Part shown: one piece after another, positions 35,140-48,942 of the stretch | Position numbering within the stretch: position 1 is the first letter of the stretch | Layout of the letters: each line of letters begins with the position of its first letter | Source of the DNA: a virus | Length of the DNA stretch: 64,000 nucleotides | Virus record (IMG/VR): IMGVR_UViG_3300045988_112808 | Reading direction: 5' to 3' (one strand) | The notes under the pieces: model-generated | Database searches by the model: none | What the model was told of the DNA's origin: nothing | Seen by the model: the letters and a program-made list of their open reading frames with translations, nothing else | Position numbers and translations under genes: made by a program

Positions 35140-36267
35140 TTAATACAATGACTGTTCTTCTTTTGTCTCTTGTTCCTGATTGTCCGTAACGTCTTCCACA
35201 GTATAGAGCTTAGGCGGCGTCGGCGGCTGGTTGGGGTTCACGAACTTCGTCCCGCCCTCCCCGTACATCCATCCATGTCCCGGCAGTATCTCTGGGTGGA
35301 TTGTATTAGTAAGCTCTTCCATACTAACTTGCCTTACCTTCAGTATATGATGAAACACAAGTCCGGCTGTCCTGAATGATGTTTTGTTTTCAGTTTTAAA
35401 CCTATCAAGAGTCTGATACCAATCTTTCCCAAATATCATATACTTATCCAGCCCGTACCTACGAGGATTGTGCAAACCTATCATTAACGTACATAACTGA
35501 CCCAGCGTATCAGATTGGTAAAAATCAGAAAGACGCGGAGGTTGCTCTTGTGGGCTTTTTATCCTTCCTTCTATCTCTCTGTTGAATTGGGATATGATGA
35601 GGAAAAATATGTTTTTATATACTAATTTAGCTTCGTTCATAACCGCCACCAAATCATCTATAGCCGACTTAGGATCTAATCCCATTCTTTTTATCAAAGC
35701 AATATGATCGACTTTAAATATTATAAGACGTTTGTCTTTGTGTTTGGTAGCTATATGATACACAGCCGCCTCAAACTCTTTTACCGTACACGGAGCATCG
35801 ATGTATATTATATTATTCCTGATTTCACCTTGAAGGATTTCAAACATCCTCATCTCTTCTACTGTATTAGAATCTTGCCTTCTTAATATTTCAGGAGCTC
35901 GCTTTTTCATATCTTGGCTCATTCTACGAAGAAGAAGATCTTGAGGATTCATTTCGAACTCGCAATTAACAAGAAAATAATCTTCTGCTTGCGGGTTGAT
36001 CATCGGATTCATCACATTTTCCAATATCTTTTGGGCCACATACGATTTACCTACAGATGGCCGGGCTCCTATGGCAATAGCGTGCTGAGGAAAAATACCT
36101 CCAAGCAAAGCCTCATCAATATAATCGTATCCGGTTTTAGCGGGGATAGGCTCTCCCCGCCTGTATTTCAAGATATTCTCATACGCCTCTTCCATAACCT
36201 GTTTAGAGGTTTTGAATATCCTTCTTATATCTATTTTATTTTTCAGATCCTCTTGCATTTTTGTCAC
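35140..36267 (-). CDS. dnaB: DnaB-family replicative helicase (C-terminal RecA-like domain)
   Basis: Walker A GARPSVGKSYVAQ, Walker B IIFKVDHIALI, ISQFNREIEGR (DnaB LSQLNR-like). Confidence 0.8.
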   Translation of the reverse strand: MTKMQEDLKNKIDIRRIFKTSKQVMEEAYENILKYRRGEPIPAKTGYDYIDEALLGGIFPQHAIAIGARPSVGKSYVAQKILENVMNPMINPQAEDYFLVNCEFEMNPQDLLLRRMSQDMKKRAPEILRRQDSNTVEEMRMFEILQGEIRNNIIYIDAPCTVKEFEAAVYHIATKHKDKRLIIFKVDHIALIKRMGLDPKSAIDDLVAVMNEAKLVYKNIFFLIISQFNREIEGRIKSPQEQPPRLSDFYQSDTLGQLCTLMIGLHNPRRYGLDKYMIFGKDWYQTLDRFKTENKTSFRTAGLVFHHILKVRQVSMEELTNTIHPEILPGHGWMYGEGGTKFVNPNQPPTPPKLYTVEDVTDNQEQETKEEQSLY

Positions 36268-39046: not shown

Positions 39047-39276
39047 ACTCTTCTTGTATTTCTGACCAATATAGGCATTATTATTTCGATGGTCTTGCCA
39101 TATTTCTTATGAGATGCAAGTACACATATTGCATATTTATCTCCTATTTTCAAATCTTTCGATAATCTTAATCTCGAACCCCTTTTGATGTTAATAAAAT
39201 AATAACCAAAAGGATTGATGCATATCGGTTTTACGATTTCTATATAATCTCCTTCAGGAATAACAATATCGTTCAT
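39043..39276 (-). CDS. hypothetical protein (77 aa)
   Basis: ATGA-type overlaps on both sides. Confidence 0.6.
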   Translation of the reverse strand: MNDIVIPEGDYIEIVKPICINPFGYYFINIKRGSRLRLSKDLKIGDKYAICVLASHKKYGKTIEIIMPILVRNTRRV

Positions 39277-40592
39277 ATTATGAATCTTTTAGACATTTCC
39301 TCTGCAATATCATACACGACCGTATGATCCTCTTCATTGTACGGCTTATTGATATTCAGCACTCCTTTTCTCACTTTGAACTTCTTATCTTTTCTAAGGT
39401 GATTCAACATACCTTGTTGGAACACGCAGTCCGCTTTCTCCATAGCAGCATTTTTATCAGACCATTCTTTTAGCGTATAACCTTTACTGTTCGTGCTTTT
39501 TGGAGAAAAATTCATAATACGTGCATCAATTCCGTACCAGTTTTTAACCATTCTTCTTTCAGCCTCCAATTGAAAAGCGTGTTCATTTCGTATGTCACCT
39601 GATTTAAAATCTAAGATAACAATCTCTTCTTTCTCCACTTCTCTCACTTCCTTCTTCGGATCACCTTTTTTGAACTGCCCTGTGGCCCTTTGATACACGG
39701 CTCCAAAATAACCTTCTTCTTTGTATTTGAATGTCATTTCAACCATCGCATCTATCGGCGTAGCTACCAAATAGTCCTCTAATGACAATATTCTTTCAAT
39801 CATCATCGGCTTAACCTTATACTCCGAACAAAACTTAGCAAACTTCATAACTCTGACAATCATATCATCAAGATCATCTATGCTACCAAAGAATTTGTCA
39901 AGATTCTTTTTTGATATTTTAAGCTTGCCTTCTTGCACTGTCTTAACTATAAAACTTCGATTTAAGACCATATCTCTACCTGTCAAGTACAATCCGTATA
40001 GGTAGTGCATGATCGTTCCTTTATCTGCATCATATTCTGATACTTCTTCCGGATTGCGACCAATCATCCTCATCTCCTGTCTCCATTCTTGAAGAGCCGT
40101 CTTGTCATCTACGAATCCGTCTCTGATCATGGTTGTTACCGAGGCGTATATCTTGGCTGTCCCATCGTCCATCTTTCTTACATAAAAACGATTACCGTCT
40201 AATGTCAATCTTACGAATTTGGGAGTCTCGATCTTCTTTAACTCATCACAGATATAAAACGGTTCTAACGTTTCCTGATTTTCTGTAAACGGATTCGAAT
40301 CCTCTTCTCCAGGGTTAGGAGCGGCTTCCTCCGCCGGAGCTTCCGGTTCCTCCTTCTGGGCCTGCTCTGGCTCAGGCGCCGGCTCTTCAACTACTGGAAC
40401 CTGTCCACCTCTTTCCGCTATGTCTCTGTTCTTTATTAAAGACATAACCTCCTTCTTCAACTGCTCCGGTGTTTGATTAGGATCTGACACCGACATCACA
40501 ACATCGTTCATTCTAAACAACGTATTTCCTTTTCCCTCCACCATAGGTACAAACCCTAAATCTGTCAATATTTTTATTTTCTGTTCTATCAT
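39273..40592 (-). CDS. PD-(D/E)XK-like nuclease candidate with a PA/E-rich linker (439 aa)
   Basis: GTIMHYLYG, PIDAMVEM, VILDFKSGD (D-x-K) and QLEAE motifs; low-complexity linker EEPAPEPEQAQKEEPEAPAEEAAP. Confidence 0.45.
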   Translation of the reverse strand: MIEQKIKILTDLGFVPMVEGKGNTLFRMNDVVMSVSDPNQTPEQLKKEVMSLIKNRDIAERGGQVPVVEEPAPEPEQAQKEEPEAPAEEAAPNPGEEDSNPFTENQETLEPFYICDELKKIETPKFVRLTLDGNRFYVRKMDDGTAKIYASVTTMIRDGFVDDKTALQEWRQEMRMIGRNPEEVSEYDADKGTIMHYLYGLYLTGRDMVLNRSFIVKTVQEGKLKISKKNLDKFFGSIDDLDDMIVRVMKFAKFCSEYKVKPMMIERILSLEDYLVATPIDAMVEMTFKYKEEGYFGAVYQRATGQFKKGDPKKEVREVEKEEIVILDFKSGDIRNEHAFQLEAERRMVKNWYGIDARIMNFSPKSTNSKGYTLKEWSDKNAAMEKADCVFQQGMLNHLRKDKKFKVRKGVLNINKPYNEEDHTVVYDIAEEMSKRFII

Positions 40593-40674: not shown

Positions 40675-41196
40675 CTATTTGGGGTTATATCTGTCAATTA
40701 TTTCAATAATCAACCTACCTCTTTCTTTAATCATTCCCCTGCTTTCCATATCCAGTACCTTCTTTACCGCATATTTCCACACAAAAGGAAATTCTGTTTC
40801 AAGTTTATCAAATTCTATCCGGTCAAGATACATGTCGAATACCGTATGCTCCGATTCATGTAGAAAAACTATATTATCTCTGCAAGTGGCAACCGACTTA
40901 TATATCCTTTTCGGAAGTATGTGACATACGTTACATACTGTAGGAAAATGAATAGCCCTACCAGTCATAGACATCCGAATACTATTTAGCTCTTCCAGCA
41001 TAAGACGAAAAAACCCGGATAAATCCGGGCTCTCTAACTTTTTCTTCTTGCTGCTGTTTTTAATGGATGTAATTCTGTTTTTCTTCTTCGGAGTCAACTC
41101 TTTGCTCCTGCAAGCCTGGCATAAGCCATGACTTCTTATCATCACTTTTCGTCCGCATCGTTCGCAGACGTATAGCTTCTTTTCCTTGCTTTCCAT
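40675..41196 (-). CDS. zinc-ribbon protein, possible HNH/NinG-like nuclease
   Basis: CERCGRK...GLCQACR N-terminus, basic linker, and C-terminal NVCHILPKR...NIVFLHESEH pattern. Weak assignment. Confidence 0.35.
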   Translation of the reverse strand: MESKEKKLYVCERCGRKVMIRSHGLCQACRSKELTPKKKNRITSIKNSSKKKKLESPDLSGFFRLMLEELNSIRMSMTGRAIHFPTVCNVCHILPKRIYKSVATCRDNIVFLHESEHTVFDMYLDRIEFDKLETEFPFVWKYAVKKVLDMESRGMIKERGRLIIEIIDRYNPK

Positions 41197-42183: not shown

Positions 42184-42849
42184 CTACTCTTTTGATTCGT
42201 CCGGCATAGGCATGTCAAACTTTTTCCTGATAAACGATTCTGTTTCTTCATTGAATGGATAGGCCTCCTTAATAAAATTCATAGCTACCTCCATATCACC
42301 GTCTGCTATATCTTTATACCTTTCAAAGATACCAACCAGGTCATTGTTATATGAACGCTCTTGTTTTATGTTGTACACGTATCTCAACACCCTGTCTTTA
42401 ATTTCATTGGCTTTTTTCACAGTATCATTGAAGGAATTTATACTTTCCAATTCTGGATCTTTGCTTTCCTTGTTTACCTTATCAAACTCTTCTTTGCTAT
42501 ACCCCGCTTCCCCTTTAATAGCCGGGCAAACACTTTCTTTTATGATCCAAAACTGTTCATACGATCCTGTCAGAAACCTTGATTTTATTTTAAATGCATT
42601 ATATTTAACAAGCAAATTAGCCACCTCAGTTGCACCTTCTATGGTTCTAAAACCGATGCCGATATCTTCTAACATAAATACTGGAACTCCAGTTCTTGGA
42701 TACACGACTTCTTTTTTGTTCTTTATATTCCAGTTTTTAGCTTCAATTGGAATACCTTTACCAGCAAGCTCTTTGTCTATATACAGACTTATCTCTTCGT
42801 CTGTCAATGCCACAATCTCATCTCTGCTTAAATCAAAAACTGTTTTCAT
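42184..42849 (-). CDS. hypothetical protein (221 aa)
   Basis: ORF-track ORF; the overlapping plus-strand ORF 42344-42871 is judged antisense noise. Confidence 0.7.
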   Translation of the reverse strand: MKTVFDLSRDEIVALTDEEISLYIDKELAGKGIPIEAKNWNIKNKKEVVYPRTGVPVFMLEDIGIGFRTIEGATEVANLLVKYNAFKIKSRFLTGSYEQFWIIKESVCPAIKGEAGYSKEEFDKVNKESKDPELESINSFNDTVKKANEIKDRVLRYVYNIKQERSYNNDLVGIFERYKDIADGDMEVAMNFIKEAYPFNEETESFIRKKFDMPMPDESKE

Positions 42850-43049
42850 TTCTTTTTATTTATTAAATTAAACAATCTACCTCTTTGTTCAGGCTCCGTA
42901 TATTCTACCCATATATCGGCTGCCACATTTCTAAGAAATTCCATAAAGTCTTGATGATCCCTGTATTCAGCAGAATCAACTTTTCTCACAAAACTTAGAA
43001 TTTCCTTTAACATCTTATTGTTTTCTTCAAGAAGTTCTCTGTCGGTCAT
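42846..43049 (-). CDS. hypothetical protein (67 aa)
   Basis: ATGA overlap with the downstream gene. Confidence 0.6.
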   Translation of the reverse strand: MTDRELLEENNKMLKEILSFVRKVDSAEYRDHQDFMEFLRNVAADIWVEYTEPEQRGRLFNLINKKK

Positions 43050-43055
43050 AACCTT

Positions 43056-43304
43056 TCAAATTTTCTTCTTATGGTGTTGATTCTTTACCGCTCTGGCTAC
43101 CTCCGACAACTCCACGTCCCTTTCCATTGTTACCCGAAAATCTTCTTCTGTTAAAGAAAAAGACATAGTTAATGTAGGAGTATCCTTAAAATACCAATCA
43201 CATAATTCTTTTAACTCTTTACGTTCATCCTAGTTTTTACATTTATGAATGGTAAGGTAATTCATTCTTTCCTCTTTTTCTTTGTCTGTTAAATCTTTTT
43301 TCAT
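43056..43304 (-). pseudogene. 82-codon gene interrupted by one in-frame TAG (43232-43230)
   Basis: ATG 43304 to TGA 43058-43056 reads MKKDLTDKEKEERMNYLTIHKCKN-TAG-DERKELKELCDWYFKDTPTL...HHKKKI. Fills a 290-nt gap in the ORF track. Confidence 0.5.
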
Positions 43305-43337
43305 AATTCTAACTTTTAAAATTGAGTATATAATTAC

Positions 43338-43604
43338 CTAAGGTAATAGATCATCCAAATAAGCCCATGATTCCATTTCATCTAATCTGCATAAAATACA
43401 TCCTGGACGGCTGGATATAAAAGTTCTGTTCTCTTCCAATATACCCATAATTGGATTCTTTGATCCTATTGTTGATTTCTTAGGGAGAAACACAATAAAA
43501 CGGTGGCAATCTGGAATTACTGTTATAGAATGCCACACGCTGTTAATGCGCCATTCTGCACCAGCTTTAAAAAGAGGAACAGCAAATTCTATATCTTGTT
43601 TCAT
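43338..43604 (-). CDS. hypothetical protein (88 aa)
   Basis: ORF-track ORF. Confidence 0.6.
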   Translation of the reverse strand: MKQDIEFAVPLFKAGAEWRINSVWHSITVIPDCHRFIVFLPKKSTIGSKNPIMGILEENRTFISSRPGCILCRLDEMESWAYLDDLLP

Positions 43605-48279: not shown

Positions 48280-48942
48280 TTAATCCCATCCTCCAGTAGT
48301 GTACAAAGATACATCTTCCTCCTCTACGTTTACCCCTTTAATAGCCTGTAGAAGTTTTTTCTTTGTCTCCCGGCACATATTGTAACCATATCCTTTATAC
48401 CGATATGAGCGCTCCCATGTGCTTACTGGAAAAGGAATATTTTCGTCAATGACCAGCCTCTTCATATGAAGATGTTCGAAGAATTTCTCATGATAGAGTA
48501 GTTTGTACTCGTATGCTACTATGCTTGCGGATGAGAATGGAAAATAATCATCTTCTTTTTCTTCGTATTTGGGCTCCTTATAGTAAGCCATTTTTGTCAC
48601 AGTAAAATCGAAGCTTCTAAGAATCTCTTTCGGCTTTCCAAACTCTGACTCTATGAACTCTATCCATACCTTTTCTCCCTCTTTCTGGAACGCACATACC
48701 TTCTCATTTCTGTACTTAAATTTCCATCCTTCTTTCTGATGTTTTTCATCATTGAACGAATCAATAGCCTCCTGAAAATCGCTTTCACTTTCAAAGAAAA
48801 TATCAATGTCTTTTACTCTTTCTCCGGAAAGGATATTTTTAAAACATCCACCAGCTATGAATCCTTTGTGGCCTTCCATATACTTGTCAAGCCATCTTAT
48901 TTGCCAGAAATTATCTGGAGTATCTATTACAAAATTATTCAT
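48280..48942 (-). CDS. Pol-beta-superfamily nucleotidyltransferase-domain protein (220 aa)
   Basis: IAGGCFKNILSGERVKDIDIFF fits the hG[GS]-x9-13-DhD minimal NTase signature. Substrate unknown. Confidence 0.5.
   Translation of the reverse strand: MNNFVIDTPDNFWQIRWLDKYMEGHKGFIAGGCFKNILSGERVKDIDIFFESESDFQEAIDSFNDEKHQKEGWKFKYRNEKVCAFQKEGEKVWIEFIESEFGKPKEILRSFDFTVTKMAYYKEPKYEEKEDDYFPFSSASIVAYEYKLLYHEKFFEHLHMKRLVIDENIPFPVSTWERSYRYKGYGYNMCRETKKKLLQAIKGVNVEEEDVSLYTTGGWD

Follow-up and report, generated by a model that had tools for sequence, protein, structure and literature searches.

The locus lies on the minus strand of a 64,000-nt stretch of viral DNA, which was analysed over its whole length and is referred to below as the window, in a slot between two conserved small genes, one of 88 aa upstream and one of 67 aa downstream (Table 1). 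The gap in the track of open reading frames had been put at 290 nt when only the letters were read; it is real and measures 288 nt (43050-43337). It holds one frame, from ATG 43304 to TGA 43056, which translates as MKKDLTDKEKEERMNYLTIHKCKN, a stop, DERKELKELCDWYFKDTPTLTMSFSLTEEDFRVTMERDVELSEVARAVKNQHHKKKI and a second stop, with the same ends, single inner TAG and translation as originally predicted. The upstream gene matches phrog_32914, and its own TAG stop is also kept in crAssE-Sib, the nearest named relative.

Table 1. Features of the disrupted gene and its immediate surroundings (coordinates are those of the window)
Feature	Position	Strand	Basis or remark
Disrupted 82-codon accessory gene (pseudogene)	43056..43304	minus	translation, homologues and allele comparison
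Frame ends	ATG 43304-43302, TGA 43058-43056	minus	82 sense positions, single in-frame TAG
Amber codon TAG, codon 25	43230..43232	minus	GAG (Glu) in relatives
Mutated base	43232	T on minus strand / A on plus strand	G in relatives
Leftover 24-codon N-terminal frame MKKDLTDKEKEERMNYLTIHKCKN	43233..43304	minus	includes just the first helix of the predicted hairpin
36-codon ORF from internal ATG (Met47), downstream of the amber	43056..43166	minus	ORF list
A6 homopolymer right behind the ATG	43296..43301	minus	length variable among relatives
Upstream 88-aa gene	43338..43604	minus	conserved, TAG-terminated, same frame as the disrupted gene
Downstream conserved 67-aa gene	42846..43049	minus	slot anchor
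Right-hand junction, 24 nt, AAGAAGAAAATTTGAAAGGTTATG (AAGAAGAAAATWTGAAAGGTTATG)	43047..43070	minus	conserved among most unrelated cassettes

A disrupted gene in an epsilon crAss-like phage

A composition calculation gives a random expectation of 5.5 stops for 82 codons, with P(≤1) ~0.027, and the scarcity of stops in the frame suggests, as weak evidence by composition alone, that it is coding. When the amber-replaced product was searched against a protein database, its matches (E = 1e-44 to 4e-45) were intact proteins of 82 aa, including clusters of 309 (P0002) and 98 (P0003) members, and the 82-aa gene was located at 59 IMG/VR loci. Since the read-through product has homologues, the 82-codon frame is a real gene, and its intact form is common in public assemblies.

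The window derives from an epsilon crAss-like phage of the human gut. Among named phages crAssE-Sib (OR575929, deposited as 'csAssE-Sib'; 151,256 bp, human gut) is the closest to it, the flanks of the slot being ~99% identical; PMC11054128 places this phage among the epsilon crAss-like ones and counts 196 ORFs and six tRNAs in it. The earlier guess of a crAss-like phage was therefore correct. The window corresponds roughly to the stretch of crAssE-Sib that extends from one large structural gene across the minus-strand block of replication/early-type genes; this block has numerous small ORFans besides a primase/helicase, a DnaB-like helicase, a Dam methylase and an AAA ATPase. Read with code 11, the large structural genes (2033 and 2137 aa) have open frames. 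An Rfam scan of the entire window returned no match, and a scan of the slot for promoters and terminators gave results at or below chance.

Elsewhere in the window, a 220-aa protein (48280-48942) carries PF26128 (Gad2, anti-Gabija family) in precomputed tables, as does its chimeric relative P0042, and the crAssE-Sib homologue of this protein is annotated as a poly(A) polymerase/nucleotidyltransferase. Our own hmmscan against Pfam-A was empty at E ≤ 0.001, and the Gad2 assignment was not retained.

The intact 82-aa protein had no significant match in Pfam or PHROGs, and tblastn against GenBank phages returned no match. A HMMER search run exhaustively over 1.84 billion representatives recovered the same narrow family plus three remote homologues; long repetitive proteins that were also matched were set aside as spurious, by judgement alone without inspection. 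In the AF2 model (mean pLDDT 73.5), residues 7-20 and 25-38 form a helical hairpin with pLDDT above 90, the C-terminal third is poorly predicted (pLDDT below 60), and a Foldseek search of the model against the PDB gave no match at E ≤ 0.001. The gene is thus a lineage-restricted ORFan, its product being predicted to be helical. Its conserved core covers residues 12-56, the C-terminal third being the least conserved, and the amber falls on the first residue of helix 2, so that most of the core is lost and the 24 aa that remain would probably be without function.

Ancestral codon and the clone carrying the TAG

Across 93 related contig matches, codon 25 reads GAG in 91, GAT in one and AGC in one, and TAG, CAG or CAA in none. 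An exact-pattern scan of IMG/VR in which this codon was left free found GAG at 56 of 57 sites (the other being GAT) and the corresponding scan of metagenome contigs at 35 of 36 (the other being AGC), some contigs occurring in both collections. At the IMG/VR loci that are in register the codon is always GAG (Glu) apart from the one GAT (Asp), while in remote homologues at 40-45% identity Glu aligns to codon 25 in P0066 and P0069, and Lys in P0072. Compared with the commonest intact allele (17 loci), the window gene agrees at 248 of 249 nt, the sole change being G to T at gene position 73.

The amber is therefore one transversion of a conserved Glu codon, unlike the CAG/TAG alternation expected from TAG-to-Gln recoding. 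An alignment of orthologues had been proposed as the check on this point, together with the possibility that they stop at the same TAG; they do not, and the sense codon that they read at the site is GAG, for Glu rather than Gln. Among the options originally listed, the recent amber mutation is borne out, being one G-to-T step from the commonest intact allele and confined to one near-identical clone.

Three further contigs with the TAG were found among the matches listed, via exact copies of the neighbouring 221-aa protein of the window: ena:ERZ27256444:k119_114665 (L254; 152,377 bp, a near-complete genome), logan:ERR912042_703 (L255; 10.9 kb) and ena:ERZ28642318 scaffold_1435 (L256; SAMEA5814758, 8.2 kb). 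Over 20.7, 10.9 and 8.2 kb, respectively, they are identical to the window bar one SNP at 36149 and a deletion in L256. A further four long contigs were flagged as similar. The SNP lies within the DnaB-like helicase gene (35140-36258), where the window has C and the three other assemblies have T (minus strand), and because this SNP is private to it, the window represents a fourth independent, slightly diverged genome of the clone. As the TAG is older than the small diversification of the clone, it is a heritable allele of one very young clone and no base-call error. It is fixed in this clone, which was recovered from several metagenome assemblies, and in none of the clone contigs listed is a gene called in the slot. 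The exact TAG allele had zero matches in IMG/VR, JGI/ENA metagenome contigs and GTDB genomes.

A second difference was seen within the clone: ~198 nt at 40129-40326 are missing from one contig (L241/L256), splitting a 439-aa gene (39273-40592), and another clone contig (L242) stops exactly at 40327, a pattern suggestive of structural variation or of a repeat that breaks assemblies.

The accessory slot and its null alleles

The 82-aa gene occupies a variable slot immediately 5' of the 67-aa gene (window 43047-43337), in which at least eight unrelated small-gene cassettes were counted among 78 relatives (L159-L238), crAssE-Sib itself having a different, two-ORF cassette. About 30 of the 80 relatives with the 67-aa anchor gene carry the 82-aa gene, which is absent from ~60%. 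The 24-nt junction on the right-hand side encodes the last codons of the 82-aa gene with its stop (KKKI and stop) together with the start of the 67-aa gene. The slot is a hot spot of cassette swapping within the early/replication block.

Where the gene is present it is often broken: ~30% of its IMG/VR copies are disrupted, and ~60 relatives yield at least seven further null alleles of independent origin. Slippage of the A6 run to A7 or A8 (L029, L030, L046-L048) shifts the frame, with a restart at Met14, while A9 merely adds a Lys (P0047 and P0061 begin MKKKD); the variation in the length of the run could be due to slipped-strand variation or to homopolymer assembly error. In another allele the ATG has become ATA (L020), and a second, independent amber is found at codon 67 (TCG to TAG) in a copy with a diverged 3' end (L049/L229, IMGVR_UViG_3300045988_116318). 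Clean 5' deletions leave the last 36 codons (L118 and L119). The altered alleles further comprise a +C frameshift at codon 56 with a 78-aa product (L050-L057, L059 and many protein clusters including P0016-P0034), a replaced 3' end (L058), a frameshift at codon 24 (P0071) and many chimeric fusions. Among intact alleles, polymorphisms are ~9 non-synonymous versus 2 synonymous. Because most relatives are without the gene, because it sits in a cassette slot and because it has many independent null alleles, we judge it to be dispensable; the pattern points to weak constraint on the 82-aa gene.

Several other variants of the gene were recorded. The lineage with the +C frameshift is old and diversified, its 78-aa product ending ...GRGRGVVGGS..STP, and several independent frameshifts reach that same alternative frame (P0016, P0017, which also has a duplication, and P0018). 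Read-through of both TAGs, that of the 88-aa gene (43338-43604) and that of the disrupted frame (43056-43304), would yield a 182-aa fusion, and in the natural variant P0005 a change of TAG to TGG joins the 88-aa and 82-aa genes. The C-terminal tail of P0047 reads ...SVSYTHLTLPTKA, which we take to be translated Nextera adapter sequence; some of the short 'variants' in public assemblies would therefore be library artefacts.

Probable inactivation by one nonsense substitution

We consider it very probable that one nonsense substitution inactivated a small accessory gene in this epsilon crAss-like phage of the gut and was tolerated because the gene is dispensable. A G-to-T change at window position 43232 converted codon 25 from GAG (Glu) into TAG. 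Since the phage reads the standard code, translation is expected to end at this codon, after 24 residues and at the start of helix 2, and it would probably leave no functional product. The mutation is fixed in one very young clone, the loss presumably being tolerated as that of a dispensable gene, and we infer that it was neutral rather than selected. This is ordinary gene decay, with no change of genetic code.

That the loss was instead selected is unlikely. The protein would in this case be costly in some hosts, for instance as a trigger of host defence, so that null alleles would be favoured and would recur, and the repeated, independent breakage of the gene described above (at least seven null alleles in ~60 relatives, ~30% of IMG/VR copies broken), its place in a fast-turnover early region near the Dam methylase and the ATPase and the recovery of the amber clone in several samples are all in keeping with such a cost. 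However, a neutral dispensable gene predicts the same pattern, polymorphism among the intact alleles is roughly neutral, and the intact form is still the commonest (309 members in P0002 and 98 in P0003). Further to that, the Pfam, PHROGs and fold searches were empty and gave no function, interaction or defence link. The finding of a null allele in several samples would also fit a tolerated, a suppressed or a selected allele alike.

Genetic code and suppressor tRNAs

Under the standard code the 89 genes of the window stop at TAA (40), TGA (34) or TAG (15). True TAG terminators include those of both neighbours of the slot region and of the genes ending at 40675, 58609 and 47450, which had been named as TAG-terminated from the start and do all stop at TAG. 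In a simple non-overlapping ORF model of the 64-kb window, coding density is 90.7% with code 11 and 92.0% with TAG as sense, a gain of 1.3 points, whereas Borges et al. called recoding at a gain above 5-10%. Within the 64 kb, TAG read-through repairs only the disrupted 82-codon locus; of two further read-through candidates, one extends a frame beyond its stop and the other is interrupted by four TAGs. The survey of in-frame TAGs covered the window, the late half of the genome lying outside it.

ARAGORN found 0 tRNAs in the 64-kb window. The complete genome of crAssE-Sib has only Cys-GCA, Arg-CCT, Gln-TTG, Met-CAT, Tyr-GTA and Lys-TTT, with no CUA anticodon, and no CUA/CTA anticodon was found at the 80 + 80 loci of relatives that correspond to its two tRNA clusters. 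The clone contig k119_114665 ends 4.4 kb beyond the window, and these 4.4 kb are without a tRNA; the search for a suppressor thus spanned the window and the relatives, the two tRNA clusters of the clone sitting in its other ~88 kb. As to pyrrolysine decoding, the window and the relatives gave no CUA tRNA and the neighbouring genes no pylS/pylBCD-type domains. In the window the phage uses the standard code, with no sign of recoding in its lineage.

One tRNA of the relatives varies in its anticodon. Called Tyr(GTA) by ARAGORN, it is 73 nt long and has no long variable arm; it lies ~300 nt upstream of the Ro60-like gene in relatives (L337-L416) and at L121:23756-23828 in crAssE-Sib. Its near-identical backbones carry the anticodons GTA, GCA (Cys) and GTT (Asn), and CTA in none; a form with G33 in the loop and a 17-locus form missed by ARAGORN were also seen. 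At one locus the neighbouring tRNA Lys(TTT) is replaced by Glu(TTC).

Decoding of the UAG by an amber suppressor of phage or host, or leaky read-through, would yield the full-length 82-aa protein conditionally, as was put forward in the original prediction. The frame is otherwise intact on both sides of the TAG and the allele persists across several assemblies, as would be expected of a suppressed codon, and the tRNA of variable anticodon is one base from the classical amber-suppressor CUA. At the same time, as only ~40% of truly TAG-recoded phages show suppressor tRNAs (Borges et al.), failure to detect one is no proof of absence. We nevertheless regard this reading as very unlikely. The ancestral and orthologous codon is GAG (Glu), while Borges et al. 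report Gln as the sole phage reassignment of TAG; in this phage TAG serves as an ordinary terminator (15 of 89 genes), the gain in density stays at 1.3 points against the 5-10% threshold, and no other gene is repaired by read-through, the in-frame TAG being alone in 64 kb and placed in the early block, outside the late and lysis genes. The search for a tRNA-Sup(CUA), proposed as a check, was negative for the window, for complete crAssE-Sib and for the tRNA clusters of 160 relatives. The intact frame around the TAG is accounted for by the youth of the clone (≤1 SNP in 20 kb).

A special form of suppression, in which the variable tRNA of the clone itself has switched to CUA and the amber is read through together with the 15 TAG terminators of the window, strikes us as exceedingly improbable. 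If true, such a switch would be an incipient step, within a single clone, towards stop-codon recoding in a standard-code epsilon crAss-like phage.

Rival readings: split products and sequencing error

It is also very doubtful that the amber has produced a functional split, with a peptide of 24 aa and a C-terminal protein of 36 aa that is initiated on its own at Met47 and keeps a function. On 6 contigs that lost the 5' half by deletion, gene callers do list the identical 36-aa ORF as a gene of its own, and the C-terminal part is retained in many chimeric proteins. However, the core of the protein spans residues 12-56, while many relatives have a frameshift or a replacement in the C-terminal third, whose pLDDT is below 60; gene callers skipped the 36-aa ORF in the clone contigs; and the conserved junction with the next gene may alone explain why the 3' end is retained. 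Re-initiation at Met47 may occur, yet it finds no support in conservation or in the gene calls. A look-up of the 36-aa ORF was also tried as a route to carriers of the TAG, and gave deletion variants instead.

Finally, a sequencing or assembly error, with G (GAG) as the true base and the TAG as an artefact of one assembly, is essentially excluded: the scans of IMG/VR, JGI/ENA metagenome contigs and GTDB turned up no TAG and G-to-T is a known oxidative-damage artefact, but three further assemblies with different sample accessions and from differing assemblers (Logan, MEGAHIT-style k119, SPIRE-style scaffold) have the same TAG, and the private SNP sets the window apart from all three other carriers as a fourth genome.

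Comparison with known systems

We conclude that the inactivation of a dispensable accessory gene by a single nonsense substitution is an ordinary event. It carries little biological weight, and its value is that of a clean example of a naturally occurring amber null allele in a phage ORFan that is dispensable. Gene callers silently drop genes that are broken by an amber in this way.

The classical amber (UAG) mutants of phages, such as the am mutants of T4 and lambda, are the nearest parallel. In them, as here, a one-base change from sense to UAG truncates the product and leaves the rest of the gene intact, so that the product is restorable only under suppression. Unlike these laboratory mutants, the allele described here is a natural one from gut metagenomes, it affects a non-essential gene, and no suppressor is needed for viability.

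The setting of the gene, as distinct from its TAG, resembles the mosaic accessory-gene slots (moron-like or hyperplastic regions) of tailed phages, which have conserved junctions at gene boundaries. Unrelated small-gene cassettes alternate between conserved flanks, the common junction is short, and deletions, fusions and pseudogenes are frequent. The slot illustrates the rapid turnover of small early genes in epsilon crAss-like phages, through cassette swapping at a 24-nt junction together with many null alleles.

With the code-15 crAss-like and other gut phages the locus shares its appearance, an in-frame TAG in the otherwise open gene of a crAss-like gut phage. In recoded phages in-frame TAGs are many (41 ORFs with an in-frame TAG in phAss-1) and fall mainly in late, structural and lysis genes, the gain in density under code 15 is large, TAG is depleted as a terminator, Gln stands at orthologous sites, and a tRNA-Sup(CUA) is often present (bioRxiv 10.1101/2021.08.26.457843; PMC9523058; PMC10607447). 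A single in-frame TAG in a crAss-like genome is no evidence of code 15, and caution is needed when one is met. Unlike the code-15 phages, the locus shows none of the marks of recoding that were tested, whether in coding density, in the number of TAGs, in the use of TAG as terminator, in Gln at the orthologous site or in a tRNA-Sup in the window and its relatives.
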